Assembly: GCA_964617815.1 (NCBI GenBank)
Contig: CAZTXY010000001.1
Coordinates: 67,120-131,119, forward strand
Source of the DNA: an uncultured Candidatus Saccharibacteria bacterium
Lineage (GTDB): Bacteria; Patescibacteriota; Doudnabacteria; UBA920
Direction: 5' to 3'
DNA length: 64,000 bases
Shown one piece after another: positions 4,289 to 41,116 of this stretch. Each line of letters starts with the position of its first letter. Position 1 is the first letter of the stretch. The position numbers and the translations under genes were made by a program. The notes under the pieces were generated by a model that was given only the letters and a program-made list of their open reading frames with translations, did no database searches and was not told where the DNA came from.

Positions 4289-4343
4289 GTGAGTAGTTCC
4301 TAGTTCCGCCATCTGGCGGATAGTCTTTAGAAATTATCTAAAA

Positions 4344-12240: not shown

Positions 12241-12246
12241 GAATAA

Positions 12247-12280
12247 AGTACTCTGTACTAAGTACTAGGTACTCAGTACT
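12247..12280. repeat. tandem heptamer array AGTACTN x5
   Basis: Reads agtactc tgtacta agtacta ggtactc agtact. It lies between the proS start and the rseP stop. Confidence 0.7.
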
Positions 12281-12287
12281 ATAATAT

Positions 12288-13454: not shown

Positions 13455-13473
13455 GAGTACTTAGTACTTAGTT
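13455..13473. repeat. tandem heptamer AGTACTT x2
   Basis: Reads gagtacttagtacttagtt. It lies between the rseP start and the frr stop. Confidence 0.55.
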
Positions 13474-16661: not shown

Positions 16662-17639
16662 ATGGGAGTTCGAACTAAAATTATTGCTATTATCGGACCA
16701 ACTGCCAGCGGAAAAAGTGAGTTGGCTGTAGAAATTGCCAAAAAACTCAACGGTGAAATTATTTCAGCAGATAGCCGTCAAGTCTATCGCGGCATGGATA
16801 TTGGAACTGGTAAAGTGACGGGAGCCTGGCATAGCATTCCATGCTCCTGTCATCCTGAGCTTGTCGAAGGATCTCTCCATAATTCTCAAAGCTCTAAAAA
16901 AATATACCTTTACAAATCTATTCCTCATTACGGTATTGATATCGCCAGTCCTAGCACCCAATGTTCAGTAGCGAAGTTTCAAAGTTACGCCAAAAAAACT
17001 ATCGCTGAAATTATTGCTCAAGGAAAAATTCCAATAATTTGCGGGGGCACTGGTCATTGGGTAGATGCAGTATTGTTCGATCAAAACTTGCCAGCTGTTA
17101 AACCCGACCTTAAACTTAGAAAAAAGCTTGAAAAACTTAATACTGCCCAGCTTTTTAATAAATTAACAAAACTAGATCCGCGCCGCGCAGAAAATATTGA
17201 CGCAAAAAATCCACGGCGTTTAATTCGCGCGCTTGAAATTATTGCGAGCACCGGAAAACCAGTTCCGGCATCAAATGCAGAAACAAAATACGATGTGCTC
17301 TGGCTTGGTATTGCTCACGACAAAATCATCTTAGATAAACGAATCGATAAACGATTGGATGGATGGCTAAAATCTGGCATGATCAAAGAAGTAACAAACT
17401 TACATGCAAATGGCTTGTCTTGGAAACGGCTTGAGGAATTTGGCTTAGAATACAAATTTGTTGCACAATTTCTTCAACACAAACTTTCCATAATTGAAAT
17501 GAGGACTTTAACCGCTACCGCAATCAAACAATACGCCAAACGACAGATGACTTGGTTTAAGCGCAATAAAAATATTCACTGGATAAAATCAAAACTAGAG
17601 GCCTTATCCCGAGCCAAAAACTTTTTACATCACAATTAA
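16662..17639 (+). CDS. miaA: tRNA dimethylallyltransferase
   Basis: P-loop GPTASGKS and IPHYGIDI. It contains an extra segment of about 25 aa encoded by a MITE-like repeat fragment. Confidence 0.9.
   Translation: MGVRTKIIAIIGPTASGKSELAVEIAKKLNGEIISADSRQVYRGMDIGTGKVTGAWHSIPCSCHPELVEGSLHNSQSSKKIYLYKSIPHYGIDIASPSTQCSVAKFQSYAKKTIAEIIAQGKIPIICGGTGHWVDAVLFDQNLPAVKPDLKLRKKLEKLNTAQLFNKLTKLDPRRAENIDAKNPRRLIRALEIIASTGKPVPASNAETKYDVLWLGIAHDKIILDKRIDKRLDGWLKSGMIKEVTNLHANGLSWKRLEEFGLEYKFVAQFLQHKLSIIEMRTLTATAIKQYAKRQMTWFKRNKNIHWIKSKLEALSRAKNFLHHN
16847..16875 (+). repeat. MITE-like element fragment (left half) inside the miaA coding sequence
   Basis: ctgtcatcctgagcttgtcgaaggatctc matches the element at 31287 at 27 of 29 nt. 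Confidence 0.7.
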
Positions 17640-17656
17640 AAAAGCAAATCAAAAAA

Positions 17657-17695
17657 CCATCTCTAATTCGCGCGGATTAGAGATGGTTTTTGTTT
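17657..17695 (+). terminator. Rho-independent terminator after miaA
   Basis: 11-bp stem ccatctctaat/attagagatgg followed by tttttgttt. Confidence 0.8.
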
Positions 17696-17696
17696 A

Positions 17697-17819
17697 CAGA
17701 ACTTATGGGCTTGGATTGAGTACGAGGCATTTTGCGAGGACTTTTGGAGGCGTAGTCAGACTACGGCGACAAAAACCTCAGCAAAATAACAAAGTAATCG
17801 GCCAAGCCCATAAGTTCTG
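17697..17819. repeat. 123-bp element with perfect 18-bp terminal inverted repeats
   Basis: cagaacttatgggcttgg at 17697-17714 is the exact reverse complement of ccaagcccataagttctg at 17802-17819. Confidence 0.85.
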
Positions 17820-17821
17820 TT

Positions 17822-19321
17822 TTATTCTGATAATTTTTTCTTAAGCAGTTCATTAACCACAGAAGGATTACCTTTTCCTTTTAACTCCTTCATTGCCATT
17901 CCAACCAGAAAACCAAAACTTTTCTCTTGCCCAGCTTTATAGTCAGTCACGGCTTTTTCGTTTTCTAAAATAACTTTTTCCACGGCTTGCAAAATTGCAC
18001 CTTCGTCGCTAACTTGCTCGAGCCCTAAATCCAAAACAATATTATCTGGCTCGCCGCCTTTTTCATACATTACTTTAAAAACTTGCTTGGCTGCACTACC
18101 AGAGATTTTTCCTTGTTCAATCAATTTCACCAATTCTGCCATATTTTCTGCACTAACAAGTGATTCATCTGGATTTTTATGTTCTGCGTTCAATAATGCG
18201 CTAAAATCCTGCAAACACCAGTTTGCCGCTGTTTTAATCAACTTAGATCTATCTAAACCATCACCATCTTGCTCTATCCACTCGTCAAGCTCACTAATCA
18301 CATCTTCAAAGTAATAGTTAAGGTCTTTCCACACAAGCAAGTTCTCAATATCTGCTTCCGGCAAACTATATTCATCTTTAAAACGAATTCGCTTGCTAGC
18401 CGGCAATTCCGGTAAGTTGCTACGCAAATCATCTAAATATTCTTTTGTGAAATGCAAAACTGGTAAATCTGGATCTGGGAAATAACGATAATCGTTGGCC
18501 TCTTCTTTACTTCGTTGTTCAACGGTGATGTTATCTTTTTCGTTCCAACCCATAGTAACCTGTTTTGGCATGCCGCCATTTTCCAAAATTTCTGTCTGGC
18601 GTTTAATTTCGTAATTAATTGCGCTTTCTGCAAATTTAAACGAGTTGATATTTTTGACTTCAACTTTGTACTTAGGAAGAGTTGTCTCCCCTGGCTTACG
18701 CACCGAAATGTTTGGCTCACAGCGCATTGTCCCTTTTTCCATATCTGCGACACCTGCTCCAACGTAACGAACAATACTGCGAAGTTCCTGCAAAAAAATT
18801 CGTGCTTCTTCAGCACTTTCAATATCCGGCTCGGTGACAATTTCCAAAAGTGGACAACCAGCGCGGTTATAGTTTACTAAAGAATACGGCAAGCCCTCAG
18901 GATGAATATTCTTTCCTGCATCTTCTTCTAGGTGAGCACGAGTAATCCGAATGCGCTTAGGTTTTCCTTGTACCATAATATCAACATAACCTGCTTGCGC
19001 AATTGGCTCATCGTACTGAGAAATTTGATACCCTTTTGGAAGGTCTGGATAAAAGTAATGCTTACGGTCGAACTTCGAATATTCGTCAATTCTACAATTA
19101 AGTGCCAAGCCAACCATAACACCCAAGCGCACAGCTTCTTGGTTCACAACTGGAAGTGTTCCAGGTTCGGCAGTCACCACCTCATCTATATTTACGTTTG
19201 GCTCAACAGTGTCAGGATTATTTGGCGCGCTCGAAAACATCTTGCTCTTGGTAGCAAGCTGAACGTGAATTTCCATGCCAATCACCGGCCTATATGTATT
19301 TAATTCTTTTTCTTCTGCCAT
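17822..19321 (-). CDS. gatB: Asp/Glu-tRNA amidotransferase subunit B
   Basis: 499 aa with typical GatB sequence and a C-terminal YqeY-like domain. Confidence 0.95.
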   Translation of the reverse strand: MAEEKELNTYRPVIGMEIHVQLATKSKMFSSAPNNPDTVEPNVNIDEVVTAEPGTLPVVNQEAVRLGVMVGLALNCRIDEYSKFDRKHYFYPDLPKGYQISQYDEPIAQAGYVDIMVQGKPKRIRITRAHLEEDAGKNIHPEGLPYSLVNYNRAGCPLLEIVTEPDIESAEEARIFLQELRSIVRYVGAGVADMEKGTMRCEPNISVRKPGETTLPKYKVEVKNINSFKFAESAINYEIKRQTEILENGGMPKQVTMGWNEKDNITVEQRSKEEANDYRYFPDPDLPVLHFTKEYLDDLRSNLPELPASKRIRFKDEYSLPEADIENLLVWKDLNYYFEDVISELDEWIEQDGDGLDRSKLIKTAANWCLQDFSALLNAEHKNPDESLVSAENMAELVKLIEQGKISGSAAKQVFKVMYEKGGEPDNIVLDLGLEQVSDEGAILQAVEKVILENEKAVTDYKAGQEKSFGFLVGMAMKELKGKGNPSVVNELLKKKLSE

Positions 19322-21317: not shown

Positions 21318-21348
21318 CTAGTACTGAGTACTAAGTACTTAGTACTTG
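21318..21348. repeat. tandem heptamer array AGTACTN x4
   Basis: Reads ctagtactg agtacta agtactt agtactt gg. It lies between the gatA start and the gatC stop. Confidence 0.7.
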
Positions 21349-21714: not shown

Positions 21715-22236
21715 CTATTTTGTTTCAGCACTAGGTGCTTCTTGGGTTACAGAGACATTAATCTCAATTGTACTTACTGTTTCTGACTTGTTCATCACTA
21801 TTGTAATTTGAGAGTCGCCTTTGCTTGCAACCAAAATTTTGCGAGTAGCTTCATTTATATCATTTTCAATTGACCATGAAGCTTTCTTAAAGTAATCCTT
21901 ATATATTTTATAATTCTCGTCTAAAGTTTTTTTGGTTTCAAAAACTCGTGTTGACTGCATCACTCCACTAACAGTAGTGGCATTGTAATTTTGTGTAACT
22001 TTTGCTCCCGACTCAAGTGGTAAATCGGTTGGAAACTTTTCTGGGAGTTTGCTTGACTCGACAGCAGTTTGGCTTACCTGAATTTTTGGCGTTTGGTTAT
22101 TTACCGACTTCCCACCAACATCCACCTTGTCACTATTTTTATAAAACTTATTAAAAGCCAACGCCCCGCCTGCTAAAATAACCATAAAGATTATCAACCA
22201 AACGAATTTTTTTGTTTGGGGTGATTGTTCGAGCAT
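21715..22236 (-). CDS. hypothetical membrane-anchored secreted protein
   Basis: 173 aa with an N-terminal TM helix. Confidence 0.5.
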   Translation of the reverse strand: MLEQSPQTKKFVWLIIFMVILAGGALAFNKFYKNSDKVDVGGKSVNNQTPKIQVSQTAVESSKLPEKFPTDLPLESGAKVTQNYNATTVSGVMQSTRVFETKKTLDENYKIYKDYFKKASWSIENDINEATRKILVASKGDSQITIVMNKSETVSTIEINVSVTQEAPSAETK

Positions 22237-22304
22237 ATTAATCTCCTTATTAAATGAACTTTTGTTTCTTAATTTTGTAAAACTTTATAAATAATTATAA
22301 CACC

Positions 22305-22358
22305 TTTATCAAAAATATCCAAAAATCAAAGGAGGGAGTCGTTTCAAACGACTCCCTC
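22305..22358 (-). terminator. Rho-independent terminator ending the high-GC two-gene unit
   Basis: 10-bp perfect stem gagggagtcg/cgactccctc followed by a T-rich run on the minus strand. Confidence 0.7.
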
Positions 22359-22447
22359 ACAGGTTCTGTAGTCCCTACCTAAGACAGGCAGACACCGGTT
22401 GCTGCACAGATCCTTCCTGTCAGTAGAATGATCATGCAAATCCTCCT

Positions 22448-22633
22448 TCATGAATTTGTTACTCCACCCACGGCACCACTGACCTTGGGTGTGTGATGAT
22501 GATTTACTCCCCCTCTGGGAAGCCTTCTTGATGCAAGCTTCTGCATCTGTTCTTCGAGCCGTCTACGTGCTTCCTTGCTGCCGTTTTTCTTTGCAACAGC
22601 TCGAGCCACGTTCTTCCCCCTCTTAATGTTCAT
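22448..22633 (-). CDS. small basic protein (61 aa), high-GC
   Basis: GGGGGG 4 nt upstream of the ATG. Arg/Lys-rich. It directly follows the Cys-rich ORF. Confidence 0.4.
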   Translation of the reverse strand: MNIKRGKNVARAVAKKNGSKEARRRLEEQMQKLASRRLPRGGVNHHHTPKVSGAVGGVTNS

Positions 22634-22642
22634 ACGGCCCCC

Positions 22643-23113
22643 CTAGTTGCGGACAAAGTACGACCGAGCCGAGCACCTCGGACCCGTAGAATCGAATGTC
22701 TCCTTTGGCGATGTGCTCGAGGACTTCGGTGAGACCTCAACTCGCCTGGTGTATGTCCCATTCTTGAAATCATCAGGAGTGAGTGCGCCGCTGTCGCGTG
22801 CAGCTTTGAATTCCGTGCAGTCGAAGGCCAAAAGCGTCTCCCTAGCCCCTCGAATCCCGCAAGCCGGGCACTGGTGACGATGCCTTCGCGCTGAGATCGT
22901 CTCCTGGTGACTGCCTATTTCCTTGCTTCTCGTCTCGCACTCATTCTCGCAAAAATGAGTCGCCAGAAATCCGAATGATCCGAAGACTTTACAGTCTTCG
23001 CATCGAAAACCCCAAGCATTGACGTGACAGTTACCATGGCTGGCAACACGAAATGGTATTGAATTACGCATTGGGCGTGCGCCAGTCGACTCGCTCGCAG
23101 TTCCTGATGACAT
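22643..23113 (-). CDS. Cys-rich zinc-finger-like protein, high-GC
   Basis: CxxC pairs at CEDC, CENEC and CPAC. AGGAGG sits immediately upstream of the ATG. Confidence 0.5.
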   Translation of the reverse strand: MSSGTASESTGARPMRNSIPFRVASHGNCHVNAWGFRCEDCKVFGSFGFLATHFCENECETRSKEIGSHQETISARRHRHQCPACGIRGARETLLAFDCTEFKAARDSGALTPDDFKNGTYTRRVEVSPKSSSTSPKETFDSTGPRCSARSYFVRN

Positions 23114-23164
23114 TCCATCTCCTCCTGCTGAAAATAGAATCCACGCCGTCTTTGACCCACAAAA

Positions 23165-23207
23165 TGTCGGACAAAAGAAAACTCGCTACTTTTTGAAGTA
23201 GCGAGTT
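23165..23207 (-). promoter_or_regulatory. terminator-like hairpin in the 5' leader of the Cys-rich gene (possible attenuator)
   Basis: 11-bp stem aactcgctact/agtagcgagtt. On the minus strand it is followed by tttcttttg, 52 nt before the ATG. Confidence 0.4.
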
Positions 23208-23418
23208 AACCTTTGTACAAAATTCTGCGTTTATATCAGTACGAGGTTGCTACTTCATTTTCCCAAAACTTAATGACACCAACAATGGAGGCCATTGCTA
23301 GAGTAGTGTAAGTAATTTGGTTACGATGAGTAGCTATATTCATATTTGTAAATCAAAATAAGCTTAAACAAAGTCCAAACATCTGTCAAATAATTTATCC
23401 ACAGCCTTAAACTACTAA

Positions 23419-23548
23419 CTAGTTCCGCCAGCCGGCGAATAGTGACTAGTGACAAGGATTTTGCTATAATAAATCCATATTAATATGTTCTGCGTGCTTT
23501 GTATCTTTACTTGGCTACTTGGAACTGTCCGCCGGCTGGCGGAACTAG
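23419..23548. repeat. 130-bp element with perfect 19-bp terminal inverted repeats; contains the lemA promoter
   Basis: ctagttccgccagccggcg at 23419-23437 is the reverse complement of cgccggctggcggaactag at 23530-23548. The extended -10 tgctataat is inside the loop. Confidence 0.85.
23462..23470 (+). promoter_or_regulatory. extended -10 (TGnTATAAT) promoter for lemA-htpX
   Basis: tgctataat lies 89 nt upstream of the lemA ATG. Confidence 0.5.
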
Positions 23549-23558
23549 GAACTAAAAT

Positions 23559-24104
23559 ATGATTTTCATCTATATTATCGGAGCTTTGGCTATCATTGCC
23601 ATCGTGCTCTACAACTCACTTATCAAAAGCCGTAACCGCGTTGATGAAGCTTGGAGCGATATTGAAGTCCAGCTCAAACGTCGCTATGACCTCATCCCCA
23701 ACTTAGTTGAAACAGTTAAAGGTTACGCTAAGCAAGAAAGTTCTGTCCTTGAGAACGTCACACGTGCTCGTTCTGCTGCTATGGGTGCTGGTTCTATGGA
23801 AGAAAAACTTAAAGATGAAAACCAGCTTTCTGGGGCGTTAAAAAGCCTGTTTGCAGTTGCTGAAAGTTATCCTGACTTGAAATCAAACCAAAACTTTATG
23901 CAAATGCAAAGCGATCTCACCGACACTGAAGATAAAATTCAAGCTAGCCGTCGCTTCTACAACGGCACTGTTCGTGACTTTAATACTAAACTTCAAGTCT
24001 TCCCAACTAATATTTTTGGAAGCATGATGGGTTTTAAAGTTCGCGAATTCTTCGATATCGACGAGAAAGGCCCAGAAGGCCAAAACGTCAAAGTCCAGTT
24101 TTAG
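23559..24104 (+). CDS. lemA: LemA family protein
   Basis: N-terminal TM helix plus a conserved LemA domain. Confidence 0.85.
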   Translation: MIFIYIIGALAIIAIVLYNSLIKSRNRVDEAWSDIEVQLKRRYDLIPNLVETVKGYAKQESSVLENVTRARSAAMGAGSMEEKLKDENQLSGALKSLFAVAESYPDLKSNQNFMQMQSDLTDTEDKIQASRRFYNGTVRDFNTKLQVFPTNIFGSMMGFKVREFFDIDEKGPEGQNVKVQF

Positions 24105-24193
24105 AAAAACTGAATTAAGAAGTAAGAATAAAGGATTATGAATTTATTACAATATCATAATTCATACTTCATCATTCCTAATCTTTCTCACTT

Positions 24194-25096
24194 ATGATCA
24201 CCTACAGCGAAATTGCCAAAAATAAACGCGAGTCAATTTACTTAATTTTTGGCTTTCTGATTGTAATTTCTGCACTCGGCTGGGTTTTCGCGCAAGTTTA
24301 CGATAATCCATTCATCCTTATCGGCGCTGTGGCCTTTAGCTTTGTAAGCGCCTTCATTTCCTACTTCTTTTCAGACTCAATCACCCTAACCCTTTCCAAA
24401 GCCAAGGAAGTTTCTAGGCAAAGCGCCCCAGAACTGTTTCGACTTGTTGAAAACTTAACCATTAGCGCAGGTCTGCCACTTCCGCGAATTTATATTATAG
24501 AAGACAGTGCCCCCAATGCATTTGCCACTGGCCGTGACCCAAAGCACGCCGTGGTTTGTGTAACCACAGGAATTTTACAAAAACTTGAAAAAACTGAACT
24601 TGAAGGGGTGCTAGCCCATGAACTTTCACATATTGGAAACTACGACATTCGGGTAATGACACTTGTAGTTGTACTAGTTGGAACTCTGACACTAATGTCT
24701 GACTGGTTTTTGCGCGCCTCTTTTTTTGGTGGCAAACGAAGTCGCGACGACAAAGGTTTAGGACAATACTTAGGATTAATTGGTTTAATCCTCGCACTAC
24801 TCTCTCCTATAATAGCAACCTTAATTAAACTGGCTGTTAGTCGAAAAAGAGAATATTTAGCCGACGCCAGTGGTGCTCTACTTACTCGCTACCCCGAAGG
24901 CTTAGCACGCGCTTTAGAAAAAATTGGAAATGACCAAGAACCACTGGAAGTTGCCAACAAAGCCACTGCACATTTATATATTATCAATCCGCTCAAAGCC
25001 CACAGTGCTGACAGCACTGGCTGGTTTGCGGGATTGTTTAACACTCACCCACCTCTTGCCGACCGCATAAAAAAACTTCGCGAAATGAATTTATAA
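24194..25096 (+). CDS. htpX: zinc metalloprotease HtpX (M48)
   Basis: HELSH zinc motif and 4 TM helices. Confidence 0.9.
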   Translation: MITYSEIAKNKRESIYLIFGFLIVISALGWVFAQVYDNPFILIGAVAFSFVSAFISYFFSDSITLTLSKAKEVSRQSAPELFRLVENLTISAGLPLPRIYIIEDSAPNAFATGRDPKHAVVCVTTGILQKLEKTELEGVLAHELSHIGNYDIRVMTLVVVLVGTLTLMSDWFLRASFFGGKRSRDDKGLGQYLGLIGLILALLSPIIATLIKLAVSRKREYLADASGALLTRYPEGLARALEKIGNDQEPLEVANKATAHLYIINPLKAHSADSTGWFAGLFNTHPPLADRIKKLREMNL

Positions 25097-25103
25097 AAAT
25101 GTA

Positions 25104-25135
25104 GAGGCCGTCCCGAAGTGAATCGGGACGGCCTC
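25104..25135. terminator. bidirectional terminator hairpin between htpX (+) and the paralog-1 gene (-)
   Basis: 13-bp perfect stem gaggccgtcccga/tcgggacggcctc. Confidence 0.65.
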
Positions 25136-25149
25136 ATTGCTGGAAAGCG

Positions 25150-25710
25150 CTATTCTGCACTCTCCGGTTTCGCCAGTTGCCGCGCGTTGTACTCGTCCAC
25201 ACAGCGATCGAAGAACTCATCTGCCCTCTCTGGGCCCGAATGAAAATCTGAAAAGCTGAACTGCCCAGCGCAAATGATCTCTAGGTGCTCATGAGATTTT
25301 ACGGTAAGACGCGAAGGACTGAGAGTCCCCGAAGCCATCTCGTCGTAAATCTTCTTGCCTTTGGCAAACAGCTCCTCACGCTGGAGTACACGAACGTGCC
25401 TTTGCATATGCCAAAGGTACGACCGATACCTTTCACGGATAACTCGCTCAACGCGGACTTCCCCCTCGCTCCAGTGAGTGGGAATTTTCGGCATTGAGTC
25501 AAGAGCGATCTCAAAGCCCTTTGCGATCTCGGCCCAGAAAGCCACACTCTCTGATTCCGGATGGAACCCTTTGCTCACAAGCGCCGCAACCATATAAACG
25601 TAAGGGTCAGTCCGACGCTCAAAGTTTATGGTCATAAGTTTGAAAGTCACAAACCAAGTCGCGAAGGCTGTGACTCCGATAATCAAAAAAACGCTGCCAA
25701 TCTCAAACAT
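25150..25710 (-). CDS. membrane-anchored protein of unknown function, paralog 1
   Basis: Start trimmed to MFEIGSV, with GGAGG 8 nt upstream. It has an N-terminal TM helix. It is about 40% identical to the protein at 27373..27951, sharing GFHPE and YxEMASGTLxPSxL. Confidence 0.7.
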   Translation of the reverse strand: MFEIGSVFLIIGVTAFATWFVTFKLMTINFERRTDPYVYMVAALVSKGFHPESESVAFWAEIAKGFEIALDSMPKIPTHWSEGEVRVERVIRERYRSYLWHMQRHVRVLQREELFAKGKKIYDEMASGTLSPSRLTVKSHEHLEIICAGQFSFSDFHSGPERADEFFDRCVDEYNARQLAKPESAE

Positions 25711-25716
25711 GGCGAA

Positions 25717-25738
25717 TTCCTCCGGCTGAAATGTCGAC
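25717..25738 (-). promoter_or_regulatory. conserved 22-nt 5' leader including the SD (copy 1)
   Basis: ttcctccggctgaaatgtcgac is identical to 27959-27980. Confidence 0.7.
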
Positions 25739-25743
25739 GCCCT

Positions 25744-25772
25744 AGTATAGTTATTCTTGCAATCCGAGTCAA
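25744..25772 (-). promoter_or_regulatory. sigma70-type promoter TTGACT-17-TATACT for paralog 1
   Basis: On the minus strand, ttgact then 17 nt then tatact. Confidence 0.7.
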
Positions 25773-25788
25773 TGCCTAACTTTGTAAT

Positions 25789-25837
25789 ATAAAAAAATCG
25801 AGGGGCAGACAAAACGCGAAAGCGTTCGCCTGCCCCT
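25789..25837 (-). terminator. Rho-independent terminator after purC
   Basis: GC-rich stem ggggcag...ctgcccc followed by ttttttt on the minus strand. Confidence 0.7.
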
Positions 25838-25842
25838 TTGCC

Positions 25843-26691
25843 TTACCGAATTGGATGTTTGAAAGCAAACCGACTGGTTTGCTCAGCGACCCAAGCATAG
25901 TTCTCCGCCAGCTTTTCCAAGTCACCGTCAGTGACCTTGGCCAAATCGCGGTAGACTTGCTTGTCTTTGAATTCTTGCTCATCGCGGAAGCGAATCCGCC
26001 AGGAGTCGTTGGTGATGTCGTCGGCAACCAGGATCTTCCCTGTAGCCGAATCGTACCCACACTCGATCTTCATGTCCCACAGGACAATTTCGAGTTCGTA
26101 CAACGCCACCTCCAGAATGCAAAACACGGCGATGGCAAGGTTGCCCAACTTCTGGACGTCATCGGCCGAAACAGTTCGGCCGCCGCGAGTCACAATTGCC
26201 GGAAGTTCACAGAGGAATCCTTGTTCCAAAGGCTTCGAAGCCACGTACATGTCCCAAGTTTGAGACACGTAGTCGTAGACGACCATCGGATCGTGATTAG
26301 CGTCATCCTTGAGGTAAAACTCAGGAGTCAATACTTCAAAGCGAGTGCCTTGAGCAACGTCGGGGTGGCGTTTGCAGTGCGACCCCGTAGCCAACCGCCG
26401 AATCACAATCTCAGCGGGGATCATGTCAACGCGATGCGCAATCATCCCCGTCAATCCAAACTCCCGAATGAAGTGAGTCGGCACACCGTGGTCGTTGAGA
26501 TGCCCCAAACAGTTCATGCTCGTTTGGTTGCACCACACGCCCTTCCCAGGCAAGGTATCGTGCCGAGCGCCGTCACCAGCGGTGATGTCATCTTTCTGGA
26601 AGATGACGACTCTGTTCGGATTTTCTGAAGTTCGGACCACTTTGGTCTTTCCTTCAATGAGAATCCTGCTCTTGTTCATCAAGTCATCCAT
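25843..26691 (-). CDS. purC: phosphoribosylaminoimidazole-succinocarboxamide (SAICAR) synthase
   Basis: LIEGKTKVV, GVPTHFI and KDDANHDPMV align with E. coli PurC. The start is MDDLMNK, with GGAGGG upstream. High-GC. Confidence 0.9.
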   Translation of the reverse strand: MDDLMNKSRILIEGKTKVVRTSENPNRVVIFQKDDITAGDGARHDTLPGKGVWCNQTSMNCLGHLNDHGVPTHFIREFGLTGMIAHRVDMIPAEIVIRRLATGSHCKRHPDVAQGTRFEVLTPEFYLKDDANHDPMVVYDYVSQTWDMYVASKPLEQGFLCELPAIVTRGGRTVSADDVQKLGNLAIAVFCILEVALYELEIVLWDMKIECGYDSATGKILVADDITNDSWRIRFRDEQEFKDKQVYRDLAKVTDGDLEKLAENYAWVAEQTSRFAFKHPIR

Positions 26692-27214
26692 CTTGCTTCC
26701 CTCCGTTTGAACTTTGAACCCCCACTTGCACTGACTTCCGATGAGTTTCGGAATATGTGAGAAGGTTACTGCTAACTGCTGGGTCCACCAGACCAACAGC
26801 AGTGCAAGCTGCTAAGCCGGCGTTGTGCAGTCCAGCTGAGTCAAGACCCAGCACGCAAACTGGCACACCTGGCGGCATTCGGACCATCGAAAGAAGTGAA
26901 TCCATGCCAGAAAGAATGTCAGCGCTTAGCGCCACACCAAAAACCTGCGCTCGGTTTGAAACATGCGAAGCAATTGCTCCGGGTAAGGCCGCCGCCATTC
27001 CAGCAACAGCAATAAACACGACCGTACCAGTCTGGAGCTTGTGCTCGCAGTACTGGCGCAAATCTTCGGGATTGCGGTGAGCGGAAATGATCGAAAGTTC
27101 CCAAGTGACTCCAACCCCGTTGAGGATTGGAAACAACTGAGACAATTTTACCATCTCCAAATCACTTGCACTCCCCAAAACAACAACCACGCTATGGCAA
27201 GCATCCAGAGACAC
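26684..27214 (-). CDS. purE: PurE-family mutase/carboxylase (N5-CAIR mutase or AIR carboxylase)
   Basis: VVVLGSASD, SAHRNP and AGMAAALPG align with PurE. The GTG start has AAGGAGG 5 nt upstream. Its TGA overlaps the purC ATG in ATGGATGA. Confidence 0.85.
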   Translation of the reverse strand: MSLDACHSVVVVLGSASDLEMVKLSQLFPILNGVGVTWELSIISAHRNPEDLRQYCEHKLQTGTVVFIAVAGMAAALPGAIASHVSNRAQVFGVALSADILSGMDSLLSMVRMPPGVPVCVLGLDSAGLHNAGLAACTAVGLVDPAVSSNLLTYSETHRKSVQVGVQSSNGGKQDG

Positions 27215-27266
27215 AACGCCCTCCTTGCTTCGCAGAGTTGCTCCTTGGAGCAGTAGAACCTGCCCT

Positions 27267-27295
27267 ATAGTAGAACACTGGCTTAAAAAAGGCAA
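27267..27295 (-). promoter_or_regulatory. candidate promoter TTGCCT-17-TACTAT for purE-purC
   Basis: It sits between the upstream terminator and the purE SD. Confidence 0.5.
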
Positions 27296-27309
27296 GATTC
27301 TCCTTCTTT

Positions 27310-27357
27310 TTTATTAAAAATGAAATGCGGCCGTCTCGATTTCTCGAAACGGCCGCC
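27310..27357 (-). terminator. Rho-independent terminator after paralog 2
   Basis: Stem gcggccgt...acggccgc followed by a T-run on the minus strand. Confidence 0.65.
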
Positions 27358-27372
27358 TAAAACCAAAGCCGA

Positions 27373-27951
27373 CTAGATGTCAGATTCACCCTCGCCCTCA
27401 TCCTCCGCACCGGTGGCTTGACTTGCCAAGTACTTCTCGACGCACTCATCGAAGAACTCAGAAAGCCCTCCCAAGCCAGAATGAACAGCGGAAAAACCGA
27501 AGTTCCCCGCATCCATGGCCCCTGTCAGTTCATTGGACTTTGTTCGCAGTTGGGACGGCTTCAACGTTCCCGAAGCCATCTCGTTGTAAAGACCCGTGGC
27601 CTTTACAAACATTTCCTCGTACCTGAGTAAGCTAATCCGACCCTTCAGTCCATTGAAGTAGAGGCCGTAAACATCACGTGCGTTCTGCTCGGCCAGCCGT
27701 TTCTCCTTAGACCAAGTGTCAGGAATTGGGCGCAAAGAATTGAAAGCCTTGCCAAACCCCTCTGCTTGCTTGGTCCAGAACTCAATGCTCCTCTGCTCGG
27801 GATGAAAGCCACTTGCCACAAGGGCCGAAAGCATGTCCATGCACGGCTTGTGCTTCCCTTGAAAGTGCCACTTGGCAAGTTGCCACGTTGCCATACACAC
27901 CACCATTACAAGAATAGTAGTGACTACTGCGACCTGGTCAGTCTGTAACAT
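27373..27951 (-). CDS. membrane-anchored protein of unknown function, paralog 2
   Basis: 192 aa with an N-terminal TM helix. GGAGG lies 7 nt upstream. It is the paralog of 25150..25710. Confidence 0.7.
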   Translation of the reverse strand: MLQTDQVAVVTTILVMVVCMATWQLAKWHFQGKHKPCMDMLSALVASGFHPEQRSIEFWTKQAEGFGKAFNSLRPIPDTWSKEKRLAEQNARDVYGLYFNGLKGRISLLRYEEMFVKATGLYNEMASGTLKPSQLRTKSNELTGAMDAGNFGFSAVHSGLGGLSEFFDECVEKYLASQATGAEDEGEGESDI

Positions 27952-27958
27952 CGCTTAT

Positions 27959-27980
27959 TTCCTCCGGCTGAAATGTCGAC
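27959..27980 (-). promoter_or_regulatory. conserved 22-nt 5' leader including the SD (copy 2)
   Basis: Identical to 25717-25738. Confidence 0.7.
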
Positions 27981-27985
27981 CACCA

Positions 27986-28014
27986 AGTATAGTTTAAAAA
28001 AACGCCAAAGTCAA
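27986..28014 (-). promoter_or_regulatory. sigma70-type promoter TTGACT-17-TATACT for paralog 2
   Basis: On the minus strand, ttgact then 17 nt then tatact. It matches the paralog-1 promoter hexamers exactly. Confidence 0.7.
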
Positions 28015-28032
28015 TAACCTTGGCGCGAAAAA

Positions 28033-28494
28033 CTACATAAATTTTTTAATGGTATCCAAGCGAAATCCTCGCGCTTGCAGACGTTGCCCCAGTTTTTGTT
28101 TCTCTAACCCTTTCCCAATTTTCTCAACCAACCGCTTGGCTACGACCAACTCATCTTCTAAACTAAAAAAATCTGACAAAGCCCGTTCAATCAAAACACT
28201 CGCCAGCCTACGCTCTAGTAATTTTTTTTTCAACATATAAAACCCATAGCTTTTATATTTTTTACAATTATCGACAAAAATTTCCGCATACCGAATGTCA
28301 TCAATCAAGCGTTCCTCAGTTAACTGAGAAATGACCTCATCAATAACTTTTTGGTTATAACCCCGTTCTTGCATTTTATGACGAATCTCCCCTTCAGTTC
28401 GTAATTTTATATTTAACAAAAACAAAGCATAGTTATGCCCATGCGAAGTTGAGTCAGGCTCTCTGAGTGGCGATGATTTTTTCTTAAAATACAT
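28033..28494 (-). CDS. recX: RecX-like regulatory protein
   Basis: 153 aa with repeated helical motifs. The RYAEIF and GFYMLKKKL segments resemble RecX. Confidence 0.55.
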   Translation of the reverse strand: MYFKKKSSPLREPDSTSHGHNYALFLLNIKLRTEGEIRHKMQERGYNQKVIDEVISQLTEERLIDDIRYAEIFVDNCKKYKSYGFYMLKKKLLERRLASVLIERALSDFFSLEDELVVAKRLVEKIGKGLEKQKLGQRLQARGFRLDTIKKFM

Positions 28495-28584
28495 ATTATT
28501 TATAGTATAAATGTGTTAGTATATAGTTAGCAAACAAAAGGTTTTTTGAAAATTATTTGAGCTTTGTTTTCAAAATTATACGGG

Positions 28585-28613
28585 TTGACAATTAGCACTC
28601 TAACCATTAGACT
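28585..28613 (+). promoter_or_regulatory. clpC promoter TTGACA-17-TAGACT
   Basis: -35 at 28585-28590 and -10 at 28608-28613. Confidence 0.55.
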
Positions 28614-28618
28614 GCTAA
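28592..28618 (+). promoter_or_regulatory. CIRCE-like inverted repeat (candidate HrcA operator)
   Basis: TTAGCACTC-N9-GACTGCTAA, against the CIRCE consensus TTAGCACTC-N9-GAGTGCTAA. One mismatch. Confidence 0.55.
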
Positions 28619-28650
28619 TATAGTTCCTGCATTAATTCCCTTTAATTCAC

Positions 28651-31185
28651 ATGGCCAATTTTGCTTTTATTTTAGAACGACTTTCTAGTCGCGCAAAGAA
28701 CGCGCTTATTGCAGCGCAACTTCTGAGCGAAGAACTCGGTCACGACCATATCGGCACCGAGCATCTTTTGTATGGCATTGTCGCTGAGCGAAGTTCGTTT
28801 GCTGCTGAAATTTTAACTAAAGCTCAACTCTCTGCCGATATTCTCAAAGAAGAATGTAACCAAGTTAATAAAAATAATATAATTCCAAGCTGGAAACCAA
28901 TTCTCTCTGAGAATTTAAAAGCTGCGATTGAACGCTCGGCTATTATCGCCAGCCAATACAACTATCAATTCATTGGCACTGAGCATTTTTTGTACGGCTT
29001 AGTTAATGTGCCAACTAACAAAGCTAAAGTAATTCTCTCTAAACTTGGTATCGACATTACTGAACTTGAAAATAATCTGATTAGTGTTTTTGAAAATATT
29101 TCTAAATTCCCAGAGGTCCCGAGCCACGAAGGAGCTAATGGCGAGCGTCCAATGAGCATGCCTTTTGAAGGCAAAAAAAATAGCACGCTCGAATATTTTA
29201 CCACCGACCTCACAAAAAAAGCGCTAGATGGTTTAGTAGACCCTGTCATTGGTCGCAAGCCAGAAATTGAACGACTAGTTAGCATCCTTGGCCGTCGTAC
29301 CAAAAATAATCCTGTCCTTATTGGTGAAGCTGGAGTTGGTAAAACCGCTATCGTCGAAGGCTTAGCTTTAGCCATCTCTAAACGCGAAGTTCCAGATACA
29401 CTGCTCGACAAGCGCATTTTAAGTTTAGACCTTGCTCTAATTGTGGCAGGTTCAATGTTCCGCGGAGAATTTGAAAATCGCCTCAAGCAAATTATCGACG
29501 AAGTTAGACAGTCCCCCAACACCATCCTCTTCATCGACGAGCTCCACACAATGGTTGGCGCAGGTGCCACTACTGGAAGCTTGGATGCTGCCAATATCTT
29601 GAAGCCGGCACTCGCGCGCGGTGAACTCCATGCAATTGGCGCAACCACTTTGGCAGAATATAAAAAACATATTGAGCACGACGCTGCACTCGAGCGCCGC
29701 TTTCAACCAATCCTAGTTGAAGAGCCATCTCCTGCCGAAGCTGTTGCCATTCTCAAAGGGCTCAGGCCAAATTACGAAAAGCATCATTCTATTAAAATTA
29801 CAGATGAAGCGATTTTTGCAGCAGTTGAACTCTCCGACCGCTACATTCAAGACCACTTCTTGCCAGACAAGGCTGTCGACTTAATTGACGAAACAGCCGC
29901 ATTCTTGCGCTCTATTTCGAGTAATTCCAAAGTTTTAAAACTTAAGAAAAAATTGGAAAATGATCTGTTAGCTTTGGAAGAAGAAAAAACCAAAGCCGTG
30001 CTTGACCAAGACTTCACCACCGCCCTTCATTTACGAACGCAAGAAGAAAAACTCATCAAGCAAAAACAAGAAGTCGAAAGCTCAATGAGACAAGAAACTG
30101 GTGGCCCTGTAAAGTCCATTTCGGCAGAAGACATTGCCCACACTGTCTCTATCATGACAAAAATTCCACTGACCAAACTTGCCGGCAATGAAATTGGCAA
30201 ACTGGTTAATTTGGAAAAAACTTTAAAAGTGCGGATTGTCGGACAAGACGAGGCTGTCACAGAAATTGCTAAAACCATTCGTCGCTCACGCGCTGGTATT
30301 ACCGATCCTGCCCGCCCAATTGGCTCATTTATTTTTCTTGGACCAACTGGGGTTGGAAAAACTGAAACAGCAAAAGTTATTGCCAAAGAAGTTTTTTCGG
30401 ACTCTGAAGCGCTTATTCGAGTCGACATGTCTGAGTTTATGGAACGACATAACGTCGCTCGTCTTGTGGGCGCACCAGCTGGCTACATTGGTTACGAAGA
30501 AGGCGGAAGATTGACCGAAGCTGTACGCAGAAAACCTTATGCCGTGGTGCTGTTCGATGAAATTGAAAAAGCACACCCAGACGTATTTAATATTCTCTTA
30601 CAAATTTTAGAAGATGGCCAACTCACCGACGCTTCTGGAAAAAAAGTAAATTTTAGAAACACCGTCATTATTATGACTTCGAACTTAGGAATGCAGGAAC
30701 TCACTCAGCAAGCTGCCAAAATTGGTTTTGCCGACAAAGATGACAAAGCAACTAAAAAACATCAACTTGAATTAGAATACGAAAAAATTAAAGGCTCTGT
30801 TATTGAAACCTTAAAACAAACCTTCCGACCAGAACTTTTAAACCGCATTGATAAAACGATTGTCTACAAGCCTCTCGGTTTTGAACAACTCAAAAAAATT
30901 ACCGCTCTCCAGATTAGTGACTTACAAACCAGACTCGCCAAACAACACGTGGCTTTAAAGACCAGTCCAGCGGTAGTGAAGTTTATTTCGGAAAAAAGTT
31001 TTGATCCAGCGCAGGGTGCTCGTTTTATTCGCAAAAATATTCAGGACTTGCTAGAAGACCCGTTAGCTGAAAAAATCATCTCTGACCATAAACTCGCAGG
31101 TAGCTTAATTACTGCCGACATCAAAAAAGACGCGATTACTTTTCAAGTCCAGCGCAAAAAAGAAAGAGCCTTAGCCGCGGCCTAA
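28651..31185 (+). CDS. clpC: ATP-dependent Clp protease ATP-binding subunit ClpC-like (two AAA+ modules, Clp_N repeats)
   Basis: Clp N-repeats, GEAGVGKTAI, a short middle domain, GPTGVGKTE, and a C-terminal ClpB_D2-small domain. Confidence 0.9.
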   Translation: MANFAFILERLSSRAKNALIAAQLLSEELGHDHIGTEHLLYGIVAERSSFAAEILTKAQLSADILKEECNQVNKNNIIPSWKPILSENLKAAIERSAIIASQYNYQFIGTEHFLYGLVNVPTNKAKVILSKLGIDITELENNLISVFENISKFPEVPSHEGANGERPMSMPFEGKKNSTLEYFTTDLTKKALDGLVDPVIGRKPEIERLVSILGRRTKNNPVLIGEAGVGKTAIVEGLALAISKREVPDTLLDKRILSLDLALIVAGSMFRGEFENRLKQIIDEVRQSPNTILFIDELHTMVGAGATTGSLDAANILKPALARGELHAIGATTLAEYKKHIEHDAALERRFQPILVEEPSPAEAVAILKGLRPNYEKHHSIKITDEAIFAAVELSDRYIQDHFLPDKAVDLIDETAAFLRSISSNSKVLKLKKKLENDLLALEEEKTKAVLDQDFTTALHLRTQEEKLIKQKQEVESSMRQETGGPVKSISAEDIAHTVSIMTKIPLTKLAGNEIGKLVNLEKTLKVRIVGQDEAVTEIAKTIRRSRAGITDPARPIGSFIFLGPTGVGKTETAKVIAKEVFSDSEALIRVDMSEFMERHNVARLVGAPAGYIGYEEGGRLTEAVRRKPYAVVLFDEIEKAHPDVFNILLQILEDGQLTDASGKKVNFRNTVIIMTSNLGMQELTQQAAKIGFADKDDKATKKHQLELEYEKIKGSVIETLKQTFRPELLNRIDKTIVYKPLGFEQLKKITALQISDLQTRLAKQHVALKTSPAVVKFISEKSFDPAQGARFIRKNIQDLLEDPLAEKIISDHKLAGSLITADIKKDAITFQVQRKKERALAAA

Positions 31186-31201
31186 TCTTAATTCCTCATA
31201 A

Positions 31202-31243
31202 ACACACTCCAATACTACCTTTGTATTGGAGTGTGTTTTATAT
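31202..31243 (+). terminator. Rho-independent terminator after clpC
   Basis: 13-bp stem acacactccaata/tattggagtgtgt followed by tttatat. Confidence 0.75.
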
Positions 31244-31286
31244 GATACCACCCTGAGCCGGCCTACTTTCAGGCAAGCCATCCTAA

Positions 31287-31360
31287 CTGTCATCCCGAGC
31301 TTGTCGAGGGATCTCTGAGCCATGATTAAGATCCTTCACTTCGGTCAGGATCACAGTGAC
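31287..31360. repeat. MITE-like palindromic element (copy 2)
   Basis: Reads ctgtcatcccgagcttgtcgagggatctc ... gatccttcacttcggtcaggatcacag. Confidence 0.65.
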
Positions 31361-31444
31361 GTAAGATACACTTGCTATAAATAGGTTCTTTCGACAACTT
31401 TTTTCTTTAGGAATATTTTATCTGCAACCTGCTAGAATGCGTTT

Positions 31445-32140
31445 ATGCTTTCTACTATTTGGAAATTCATTCTAGAGACTATTGCACCAGTTACCTGTGT
31501 AAGCTGTGGAAAACACGGCCAACACCTCTGCTTTATTTGCCAGTCAAATTTACCAATAGCCAAACAGTTTTGCATTGTCTGTGGCAAAATTAGCTTGCTT
31601 GGCATTACCCATAATAAATGCAAGATCAAAAAAGATCCATACGGAGTTCTAGCTATTTTTGAATACAAAAATCCTAGCATTACTAAGCTAATTATTCGTG
31701 GAAAATATTACTTCATTCCCGACTGCTACTTCACTTTAGGAAGTGCGCTGTGTGAATACTTAAAACAACAGCATCTAGAAATATACTTTAAAAATTATAT
31801 TTTATGTCCCATCCCGTTAAGTAACGCAAGAGAACGTTGGCGCGGATTTAACCAATCCCAAATTATTGCTCAAGTTATAGCTAATAAATTAAATTTACAG
31901 ATGGAGCCAGCCTTAGTACGAACACGTTGGACTAAAACGCAAAAAAATCTAAAACAAGCGGCTCGGCAGAAAAATGTTACAGGGTGTTTTGGCCTAAATA
32001 ATCATATCTCTGTTTCTGGAAAATCAATTCTATTAATTGATGACGTGGTTACAACTGGTGCCACACTTCGCGAAGCTACTCTCACTCTCAAACTAGCGGG
32101 CGCCAAAAACGTATGGTGCCTTGCAGTCGCCCGCGACTAA
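31445..32140 (+). CDS. comF: ComF family phosphoribosyltransferase (competence protein F-like)
   Basis: N-terminal Cys4 zinc ribbon and a C-terminal PRTase motif LLIDDVVTTGATL. Confidence 0.8.
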   Translation: MLSTIWKFILETIAPVTCVSCGKHGQHLCFICQSNLPIAKQFCIVCGKISLLGITHNKCKIKKDPYGVLAIFEYKNPSITKLIIRGKYYFIPDCYFTLGSALCEYLKQQHLEIYFKNYILCPIPLSNARERWRGFNQSQIIAQVIANKLNLQMEPALVRTRWTKTQKNLKQAARQKNVTGCFGLNNHISVSGKSILLIDDVVTTGATLREATLTLKLAGAKNVWCLAVARD

Positions 32141-32191
32141 CATTGACCAAATACATTTATTTCACTATAATTACTGAGCAATTTCAAGTTT

Positions 32192-32253
32192 GGAGAGGTC
32201 GCATAGTGGGCAGTAGCAGCGGTTTGCTAAACCGCTGTACGATTGTAAAGCTG
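32192..32253 (+). pseudogene. truncated copy of the tRNA-Ser(GCU) 5' half
   Basis: ggagaggtcgcatagtgggcagtagcagcggtttgctaaaccgctgtacgattgtaaagctg matches the first ~60 nt of the intact gene 13 nt downstream at about 85% identity. Confidence 0.7.
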
Positions 32254-32266
32254 AATATGTTAATTT

Positions 32267-32360
<94 letters not shown>

Positions 32361-32370
32361 GAGAATTTAT

Positions 32371-32392
32371 CCGCCTAAAGGCGGTTTTTTTA
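32371..32392 (+). terminator. Rho-independent terminator after tRNA-Ser(GCU)
   Basis: ccgcctaaaggcgg followed by ttttttt. Confidence 0.8.
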
Positions 32393-32582
32393 ATGTTATG
32401 CAAAATTTTCTAGCCCCATTTACTTGTTACTTTAAAAACATGGTAAATCAATGCTTCTTAGTATACCTAGGCCTCTATTTTTGATACAATTACAGAGTAG
32501 TATTCTTTTGTGGCCACTTTCAGTGGTCATAATTTTGGATTTTACTTTTTTTGTGTTCTAATATAAATAATTTTTGTAACAA

Positions 32583-33176
32583 ATGGCCTTGTCCCCCGTC
32601 TTTACTAGTAGCGAATCTAACTTTGAAACTTTGCCAGAAAAGATTGTGGCGCTGTTAGATAAGGCTTGCCGTGGTGACGAAGGCGCATTTAGCCAACTCT
32701 ATCAAGCCTATTTTGAAAAAATTTATAAATTTCTCTACTACAGAGTCAACCATAAAGAGACAGCGGAAGACCTGACTGAAGATGTTTTTATAAAGGCATA
32801 TCAAAATATAACAAATTTACAGAATGTAAATTTGTTTGAAGGCTGGCTATTCCAAATTGCTCGTAACCGGCTCATTGACCATTACCGAAGCAAAAAACAA
32901 ACTGTTGACCTAGATGAAGTTATTGAAATTCTGGAATACGAAGATGCCACGGTTGATGTCCTAGACCTAGAAAGTAAACAAAAAATTCTACTTGAACTTC
33001 TCAAAGAATTAACCACAGAGCAAAGACAAGTAATCCGCCTTAAATTTTTTGAAGACTTGTCCAATTCAGAAATCGCCAGTTTAATTAACAAAACAGAAGT
33101 TGCGGTGAGAGTTATCCAACACCGTGCAATGACTAGACTTAAAGAATTAATTTCAAATTTAACAAACAAGCAATGA
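32583..33176 (+). CDS. ECF-type sigma-70 family RNA polymerase sigma factor
   Basis: Sigma70 region 2 (EDLTEDVFIKAY) and a region 4 HTH (LSNSEIASLINKTEVAVRV). Confidence 0.85.
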   Translation: MALSPVFTSSESNFETLPEKIVALLDKACRGDEGAFSQLYQAYFEKIYKFLYYRVNHKETAEDLTEDVFIKAYQNITNLQNVNLFEGWLFQIARNRLIDHYRSKKQTVDLDEVIEILEYEDATVDVLDLESKQKILLELLKELTTEQRQVIRLKFFEDLSNSEIASLINKTEVAVRVIQHRAMTRLKELISNLTNKQ

Positions 33177-34261: not shown

Positions 34262-34349
34262 TCGGCGCATGTCAGACCGGGATTAGTGCAGGAAGGATCC
34301 TGCCTTGAACTCGGTTTGACAAAGTGTCTAGCCGATTTTTAACAAAAAA

Positions 34350-34383: not shown

Positions 34384-34531
34384 TTGCCTCTAAAAATGCT
34401 ATACTAAGATAGTATTTGTGCGCCAAATAATAGTATTTATTCTATATTCTTTAGGAAGTGAGCGACAACTCTGTTGACGCGAACGAGGAGTGGGCAGTCC
34501 GCCGTTGGCGGATGATCCACGACCAAATAAT

Positions 34532-34620
<89 letters not shown>

Positions 34621-34819
34621 GTGGCATGAAAGACATCTGTAAGATGGCTGCCAGGCCACTGGTTTTGATAGGTGGGATGAGAAGAATCCTGACATCAATA
34701 ATAAAAGCTTCCGAAGGAAGCGAATAGATAGGAAATACATAGCGAAGCGGATGTCCGCCATGGAAATGTTGAGATACAAAGCATGTCGACAATTCCATGC
34801 CATTAAAAAAAAATAAATT

Positions 34820-41087: not shown

Positions 41088-41116
41088 TAGAATAGTTATA
41101 TAATTCTAAAAATCTA

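Follow-up and report, generated by a model that had tools for sequence, protein, structure and literature searches.

Organization of the lemA Locus

The lemA gene and the htpX-like M48 peptidase gene behind it are preceded by a 130-nt stretch that begins and ends with the arms of an inverted repeat (Table 1). The LemA ORF matches the Pfam family PF04011 with E = 9e-61. Within the window, which is the whole 64-kb stretch of DNA analyzed here, the arm pair is the top inverted repeat returned by the repeat finder, and it extends to 32 nt at 84% complementarity (23419–23450 with 23517–23548). The original prediction described a perfect 19-bp terminal inverted repeat, an AT-rich loop of 92 nt between GC-rich arms, an extended −10 element inside the loop, and a right arm ending 10 nt before the lemA ATG. 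All of this is borne out: the arms are reverse complements at 19/19 positions; the interior (23438–23529) is 34% GC and the arms are 74% GC; the TATAAT site has an upstream TG and scores 10/12; and the right arm ends at 23548, with the LemA ORF starting at 23559.

Table 1. Coordinates of the features at the lemA locus and of the related copy near serS.
Feature	Position	Strand	Remarks
Left arm, perfect 19-nt inverted repeat	23419..23437		Sequence CTAGTTCCGCCAGCCGGCG; direct reading and repeat finder
Right arm, perfect 19-nt inverted repeat	23530..23548		Exact reverse complement of left arm
Left mini-palindrome, ACTA-TTCGCCGGCTGGCGGA-ACTA	23420..23443	-	Abuts −35 hexamer
Right mini-palindrome, ACTG-TCCGCCGGCTGGCGGA-ACTA	23524..23547	+	Predicted lemA 5′ UTR, about +51 to +66
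Third unit copy, ACTA-TCCGCCAGATGGCGGA-ACTA	4301..4324	-	NUDIX-serS spacer
lemA promoter: GTGACT −35-like, 17-nt spacer, extended −10 TGCTATAAT (23462-23470)	23442..23470	+	Consensus scan 10/12, TG present
Heptad remnant GAACTAAAAT with SD-like AGGA(AC)	23549..23558	+	Between right arm and ATG
lemA and htpX-like M48 peptidase	23559-24104 and 24194-25096 (span 23559..25096)	+	Pfam PF04011 and PF01435

The window has a GC content of 40% and contains housekeeping genes, among them gatCAB, serS, mreBCD, clpB, and recG. The nearest LemA matches, at 83–88% amino-acid identity, come from MAGs labelled Patescibacteria, Doudnabacteria, and Saccharibacteria. The 90% cluster of LemA has one member only, and an exact-protein look-up with the 459-aa SerS returns matches from the same strain only. 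The lineage of the window, lineage A, is compared below with a sister lineage, lineage B, which is represented by ENA and Logan assemblies and has ~87% DNA identity and 93% SerS identity to the window. Scanned at the Rfam gathering thresholds, the whole window yields two tRNA-Ser genes and nothing else; permissive scans of 22200–23620, 17620–17860, 40950–41130, and 55440–55620 yield sub-threshold noise only. The arms and the neighboring repeats therefore belong to no described RNA family.

Left of the element lie a minus-strand terminator (23207–23180) and then a GC-rich island with a 156-aa ORFan that contains no Pfam domain. The island is one of two blocks of 50–58% GC within the 40% GC genome (22360–23180 and 25100–27300), both of which are probably acquired DNA. 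The ORFan is Cys-rich and represented by two proteins only among 5.8 billion, and its codon differences between the lineages are 26 synonymous versus 19 non-synonymous. The same block carries a basic ORF of 61 aa without conservation in lineage B; the second block holds purC and neighboring genes. The arms were also considered as att-like remnants of the adjacent island, a candidate that was rejected upon finding no matching sequence at the island's other end.

Two further features of the window are recorded here. A CIRCE-like element with 1 mismatch (TTAGCACTC-N9-GACTGCTAA), of which chance would give 0, lies at 28592–28618. It overlaps the promoter region of a clpB-like gene (28651–31185) and implies putative heat-shock control of the HrcA type. 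A cluster at 42439–50095 encodes a TraG/VirB4-like ATPase, a PrgI-like protein, and an SLT transglycosylase, and looks like a type IV secretion or conjugation-like apparatus.

A Mini-Palindrome in Each Arm

Each arm is itself a self-complementary hairpin of 16 nt, TCCGCC-N4-GGCGGA, with a 6-bp GC stem and a 4-nt loop. The hairpin is bordered on both sides by ACTA (by ACTG and ACTA in the right lemA copy), which brings the unit to ~24 nt. Beyond these borders the flanks of the left and right lemA copies differ. The stem of the left unit has one mismatch (GGCGAA) in the window genome and is intact in lineage B. The right unit sits just upstream of an AGGA Shine–Dalgarno-like motif.

A third copy lies elsewhere in the window. 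Searching with the 19-mer and allowing up to 3 mismatches gives 3 matches, versus 0.00 expected from 100 dinucleotide-preserving shuffles. The match outside the lemA locus (4300–4318) falls in the spacer between the NUDIX gene and serS, where the unit is followed by GGAACTACTCAC and then by the serS ATG at 4288. The looser pattern CCGCC-N3–5-GGCGG occurs 5 times in the 64-kb window, versus 0.01 expected; these are the three ACTA-flanked copies and two further TCCGCC...GGCGGA hairpins. A hairpin with a 3-nt center, TCCGCC-GTT-GGCGGA, is found at 34498–34512, 20 nt upstream of tRNA-Ser(TGA), and another copy at 41060 (41049–41070) is placed inside a different repeat. The center of the element at 41003–41096 shares 13 identical nt (CCTCTCCGCCAGT) with the 3′ end and trailer of tRNA-Ser(TGA) (34600–34622), a match that might be fortuitous or might point to where the hairpin came from.

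Given that the unit is itself a palindrome, any two copies of it are both direct and inverted repeats of each other. The 19-bp terminal inverted repeat is therefore most likely a by-product of having the palindromic unit in two copies. The 130-bp “element” is, with a fair degree of probability, a composite in which two REP-like mini-palindrome insertions flank an ordinary lemA promoter.

The 16-mer extends beyond this genome. A metagenome scan with CTAGTTCCGCC-N4-GGCGGA gives 78 hits, most of which fall on high-GC contigs and resemble chance matches or repeats of another kind. Relatedness is apparent only at about seven distinct low-GC loci, which have the loops AGCT, AGAT, ATCT, or AGCC and in some cases second copies nearby. 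These related copies lie mostly in short spacers between co-directional genes, 15–40 nt upstream of start codons. In an unbiased 480-kb sample around LemA genes, one locus (L027) reads CTAA-TCCGCCAGCTGGCGGA-CTAA within a tandem array and 22 nt ahead of a start codon. In the literature, no paper was found with the 14-mer CCGCCAGCTGGCGG and none describing REPs in bacteria of the candidate phyla radiation (CPR), to which this organism belongs, and Rfam contains no family matching the 16-mer.

Insertion into Heptad Arrays

The copies sit within 7-nt-periodic arrays (ACTAGGN / AGTACTT), and deletion of 20 nt, the hairpin and one ACTA, restores the 7-nt register at 3/3 sites. At the left lemA site, what is left after this deletion is the array ACTAGTC ACTAGTT AGTAGTT. 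The “excised” serS site, ACTAGGA ACTACTC ACATG, mirrors a real empty site in lineage B, ACTAAGG ACTAAAC ACTATG. The NUDIX-serS spacer of lineage B is 19 nt long (TTACTAAGGACTAAACACT and then ATG) and holds the array without the hairpin, compared with 55 nt in the window. In two outgroups with 76–78% identical SerS, the spacers are 9 and 15 nt and have neither hairpin nor heptad array. Since the serS copy is absent from lineage B and both outgroups, it is a lineage-specific gain in lineage A. A role of the serS hairpin as a tRNA-Ser mimic or T-box was considered and rejected, the spacer being only 55 nt and the copy being absent in lineage B.

Such arrays (ACTAAGT / ACTAGGA / AGTACTT) are a wider feature of the window, with 10 found versus 0.8 expected. 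They occupy short intercistronic spacers directly upstream of start codons, including 6540–6572, 9857–9922, 12246–12281, 13456–13472, 21319–21347, 39710–39735, and 59384–59517. The arrays are conserved in lineage B and absent in the two outgroups. Every heptad contains TAA or TAG, which places stop codons in all three frames. Two arrays, (AGTACTT)n and (ACTAAGT)n, also pair up as a third long inverted repeat at 59381–59506 (20 nt, 90%), one to each side of a bidirectional terminator between convergent genes; because AGTACT is self-complementary, any two arrays of the AGTACTT type pair.

The copying would be transposition-like, with either a target duplication of 3–4 nt or insertion 3′ of ACTA. 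Recombinase and transposase domains, including Y1_Tnp, are absent from the 50 ORFs scanned, which include all those near the lemA element.

An alternative is that the whole 130 bp is one mobile unit of the REPIN or MITE type that supplied the lemA promoter, the serS copy being a decayed singlet. The architecture fits the definition of a REPIN, an inverted REP doublet with a spacer; the left arm is closely preceded by a weak alternative promoter-like site, TAAACA-18-AATAAT; and the genome does host a 125-bp MITE-type element with 19-bp terminal repeats. However, neither the window, nor ~27 kb of lineage B, nor any of the loci fetched contains a second copy of the 92-nt interior, which forms no foldback, unlike REPIN spacers and the 125-bp element. 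The serS singlet is a recent gain rather than an old remnant, removal of each arm alone restores the heptad register, and no clear target duplication borders the 130 bp. A single mobile unit of this kind is accordingly considered unlikely. The MITE with an outward promoter suggested by the original prediction survives in one respect, that of mobile DNA: the arms are copies of a small repeat that did insert elsewhere, at serS. It fails in that the unit of insertion is ~20 nt and not 130 bp, the interior has no second copy in the sequences compared, and the promoter is generic.

The lemA Promoter and mRNA Leader

The sequence TGNTATAAT occurs 12 times in the window versus 2.9 expected, mostly upstream of genes, and as judged by this distribution it is the generic promoter type of the genome. 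From the position of the promoter, lemA transcription would start near 23477. The promoter between the arms is presumably the native one. As extended −10 promoters are generic here, those of relatives may not be orthologous to it.

LemA relatives were compared at 80 loci from species-representative genomes. Relatives carry the same promoter type, with the TGCTATAAT motif 40–75 nt upstream of the ATG, and no GC-rich arms. In the window the −10 motif is ~90 nt from the lemA ATG, a distance consistent with an added unit in the leader. An inverted repeat of at least 11 nt around the promoter is found in 0/80 of these loci, and an upstream neighborhood shared with the window likewise in 0/80. With no relative sharing the upstream neighborhood, an empty site for the lemA arms is not definable. 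The original prediction had named two findings that would speak against it, namely no other copies and relatives without the arms; relatives do lack them, and another arm copy does exist. A different GC hairpin, CCTGCC...GGCAGG, is present in two LemA relatives, upstream of the promoter in one (L010) and beside the SD in the other (L021), positions that suggest spots where insertions of this kind are tolerated.

Because the promoter is inside the loop, only the right arm enters the lemA mRNA, provided that this promoter is used. This tells against the leader hairpin formed by both arms that was among the original suggestions. In the predicted fold of the lemA UTR, the local right hairpin forms and the SD region (AGGA) is unpaired. 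The right copy would thus be the only one transcribed with lemA, as a short, stable 5′-UTR hairpin that leaves the SD free, and by analogy to REP hairpins it may be neutral or mildly stabilizing. The left copy would be functionally silent or perturb only the UP-element region.

The long 19-bp stem could instead act at the RNA level, as a processing or stability signal in a lemA transcript that starts upstream of 23419 or in an antisense transcript that runs from within lemA to the terminator at 23180–23207. The 130-nt stretch folds at −60 kcal/mol on the plus strand (z = −8.7) and at −52.7 kcal/mol on the minus strand (z = −8.2), with the arms paired and the 92-nt spacer mostly unpaired. A weak promoter-like site scoring 9/12 faces leftward at 23602–23574, toward the minus-strand terminator, and the long stem still folds in lineage B. 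Yet the sole strong promoter lies inside the loop and points toward lemA, which leaves the left arm outside that mRNA; there is no upstream plus-strand gene to read through; and two core pairs are broken in lineage B without compensation. A role of the long stem in RNA processing or stability is very unlikely.

Comparison with Lineage B

Both lemA arms are present in lineage B. Of the assemblies that span the repeat, 6/6 have the interior in one orientation: the three Logan assemblies identical to the window (L160–162, from three separate runs of one strain) and, for lineage B, L001, L164, and L166. Independent assemblies contain no inverted variant of the interior. These observations bear on whether the promoter is invertible, a phase-variation switch in which a recombinase would turn the 92-bp segment toward either lemA-htpX or the divergent small transcript. 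Inverted repeats do bracket a promoter here, and a divergent terminated unit lies to the left. Besides the single orientation, the lack of a recombinase or transposase domain in the 50 scanned ORFs speaks against a switch, as does the arm core, which is not kept as an inverted repeat in lineage B. To our knowledge, all invertible switches have more than 92 bp between their repeats. Inversion of the promoter is therefore regarded as extremely improbable.

The right-arm loop reads AGCC in lineage B and GGCT in the window, each the reverse complement of the other. This flip leaves the local stem intact and makes direct repeats of the two cores. It costs the long repeat two pairs, for which there is no compensating change. 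Two other differences of lineage B, 23438 A→G and 23527 G→A, create pairs further in, and its sequence still folds into a long stem. Given these differences and the left-stem mismatch in the window, neither the long stem nor each local stem is strictly maintained.

The left arm and promoter are part of a segment, 23180–23480, that is only ~2% diverged between the lineages. Their LemA-coding sequences differ at 25% of third codon positions and at no amino acid. The near-invariance of the segment could reflect function rather than neutrality, and a structured minus-strand RNA with divergent promoters may be responsible; it may also be a recent recombination tract, as recX and other tracts suggest mosaic recombination. 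Mainly because of this near-invariance, the composite, neutral reading is held at no more than a fair probability.

Divergence along 22279–34265 of the window is a mosaic when compared with the lineage B contig L146. The recX gene and its spacer are 97–98% identical between lineages (recX 98.5%) and tRNA-Ser is 100% identical; comF is 73% identical and the lemA-htpX spacer 38%. The pattern suggests recombination tracts along with rapid turnover of spacers. A candidate small transcript runs divergently from lemA on the minus strand, from 23356 to 23172, behind a promoter-like site TTGACA-17-TAAGCT. It would be 185 nt long, strongly structured (z = −6.5), and ended by the intrinsic terminator at 23207–23180, and it includes a 35-codon ORF without an SD. 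The region 23172–23356 is ~98% identical to lineage B, compared with 88–91% for neighboring coding DNA. The 35-aa ORF was rejected as protein-coding, since its sole substitution between lineages is non-synonymous and it has no coding signature.

The two palindromes might also serve as operators, bound by a dimeric protein that would loop the promoter or block lemA-htpX transcription, with serS in the same regulon. Each arm is a 2 × 6–7-bp palindrome with a 4-bp center; the centers, 23431.5 and 23535.5, are separated by 104 bp (by 105 bp in lineage B), or ~10 helical turns; one site touches the −35 and the other is at about +59; and the left arm and promoter are nearly invariant between lineages. 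The serS site, however, is absent in the outgroups and in lineage B despite its 93% identical SerS, and the arms are absent from all LemA relatives. The left stem of the window genome has a mismatch, the center shrinks to 3 nt in the copy at 34498, and the copy at 41060 is part of a different repeat. The 16-mer also occurs between co-directional genes in unrelated CPR contigs, and no regulator gene is evident beside the locus, where the neighbor is the ORFan without a Pfam domain. The paired operators of the original prediction are weakened by the missing serS copy and the variable loop length, and regulation of this kind is distinctly unlikely.

Other Small Elements That Differ between Lineages

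The original prediction likened the lemA feature to an element at 17697–17819. This element, here placed at 17696–17820, is a foldback 125 bp long whose 19-nt terminal repeats are perfect, with the miaA terminator on one side and the gatB stop codon on the other. It is paired over nearly its whole length (z = −11.9) and has no promoter inside. The likeness therefore holds for arm length and spacing and breaks down at the full-length pairing and the missing promoter. The miaA-gatB spacer is 182 nt in the window versus 57 nt in lineage B (L174), and the 125-bp element is the exact difference. The element recurs in a third lineage (L177, JGI 3300045379) with a nested 43-nt insertion. On this comparison of sequences, it is a genuine MITE-like insertion, unlike the lemA feature.

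The lemA-htpX spacer of lineage B contains a 61-nt hairpin element (L001:1847–1907) that is absent from the window. The 125-bp and 61-nt elements are thus present or absent between lineages, and small elements therefore move on this timescale. The 61-nt element is a shorter version of a family of 80–100-nt elements found at 31296–31376, 41003–41096, and 55482–55582. Members have the ends ACTGTCATCCTGAATGAAATGAAGGATCTC ... CGGAATGACAGT and a Y-shaped fold, whose second arm is a variable GC hairpin (TCCGCCAGTCGGCGGA in one copy, GCCTGCCTGCCGGTAGGCAGGC in another). The family has no Rfam match.

Proposed Origin of the lemA Feature

The composite reading may be put as follows. Two REP-like mini-palindromes of ~20 nt would have landed in 7-nt-periodic spacer arrays to the left and right of the lemA-htpX promoter, the left copy directly upstream of the −35 and the right copy in the 5′ UTR just before the ribosome-binding site. 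The 19-bp terminal repeat would then stem from two copies 104 bp apart, and gene conversion between them possibly sharpened the match. The left and right copies would be separate insertions; both of the lineages that share the locus carry both, and neither offers an empty site. In favor of the composite are the hairpin structure of the unit, its third copy and the presence or absence of that copy between lineages, the register regained on deletion, the differing flanks of the two lemA copies, the loop flip that spares the local stem, the one orientation of the interior, and the lack of arms in relatives. The small number of ACTA-flanked copies, three in the 64 kb, the helical spacing of the palindromes, and the near-invariance of 23180–23480 weigh against it.

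A bolder claim goes beyond this and is put forward as an outside chance only. The 20-nt unit (16-nt hairpin and ACTA border) would be the smallest mobile DNA described, autonomous-looking, enzyme-mobilized, and spreading across Patescibacteria lineages by inserting specifically at (A)CTA(A) in tandem spacer arrays just upstream of start codons. The lemA pair would represent two hits that form a protein- or structure-mediated bracket around the promoter, and the near-invariant 23180–23480 would be a functional unit that includes the divergent small RNA.

Comparison with Known Systems

Neisseria Correia elements and enterobacterial ERIC sequences are foldback repeats of ~100–150 bp that are repeated in full many times with target duplications, and Correia elements can contribute promoters. 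The lemA feature resembles these elements and MITEs in size (~130 bp), in terminal inverted repeats (19/19 nt), and in intergenic position. It differs in that only the ~20-nt ends are repeated, with no other full-length copy found. The lemA 130 bp is also present in both locus-sharing lineages with no bordering duplication, whereas 17696–17820 does behave like a MITE.

Invertons such as fimS have inverted repeats flanking a promoter next to the regulated gene. The lemA feature shares the inverted repeats around a promoter beside a gene, but no second orientation and no recombinase were found, and its segment is only 92 bp. In chloroplast non-coding DNA, small hairpin loops undergo inversions. 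The flip of GGCT to AGCC between lineages, with the stem unchanged, is similar; this parallel bears on the evolution of the unit only and not on its identity.

REPINs are REP doublets that form hairpins (Bertels & Rainey 2011, PMC3116915). The lemA pair is similar in having two inverted REP-like units ~100 bp apart that are predicted to form a long hairpin when single-stranded. It differs from REPINs in that its spacer is an unpaired AT-rich promoter region, no second doublet was found, and the serS singlet is newly inserted and not the remnant of a doublet. The core changes of lineage B also break pairs without compensation, while the two changes further in create pairs.

REPs themselves are imperfect palindromes of 20–40 bp in GTAG- and CGTC-tagged superfamilies (Di Nocera et al. 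2013, PMC3733652). They have a high copy number and are extragenic, lying mainly downstream of coding regions and between unidirectional or convergent genes. Like them, the lemA/serS unit is an imperfect palindrome that is short and GC-rich and lies in extragenic spacers, most of them transcribed. Its copies are often close together in opposite orientation and able to fold into larger structures, and a stabilizing or neutral effect of the RNA hairpin is plausible. Co-directional genes border the serS copy and most of those in other contigs, and a divergent promoter region holds the lemA pair. The unit departs from REPs in its core of 16 nt (~24 nt with borders), at or below the lower limit of the 20–40-nt range; in its flanks, ACTA / ACTA(G) or CTAGT on the other strand, with a GTAG or CGTC tag in no copy; in the position of the window copies upstream of genes rather than downstream; and in a copy number that is low across the 64 kb analyzed, with three ACTA-flanked copies and two further hairpins. 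The two-sided ACTA borders are a further difference and resemble a target duplication. Mobilization of the IS200/IS605 type (RAYT) is not known to leave a target duplication.

The lemA feature serves as a caution that an inverted repeat around a promoter may be neither switch nor transposon. A palindromic repeat present twice is enough, and “terminal inverted repeats” therefore arise automatically. Repeats are usually described as scarce in CPR genomes, which are very small. The copies in the window document short palindromic insertions in a CPR genome, at promoter and 5′-UTR positions, that differ between close lineages, and nearly the same 16-mer recurs in other CPR contigs. Should the units influence mRNA stability or the strength of promoters, they would offer cheap regulatory variation where transcription factors are few. 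Judged by sequence and arrangement, the lemA feature is best described as a pair of inserted REP-like mini-palindromes around an ordinary promoter.
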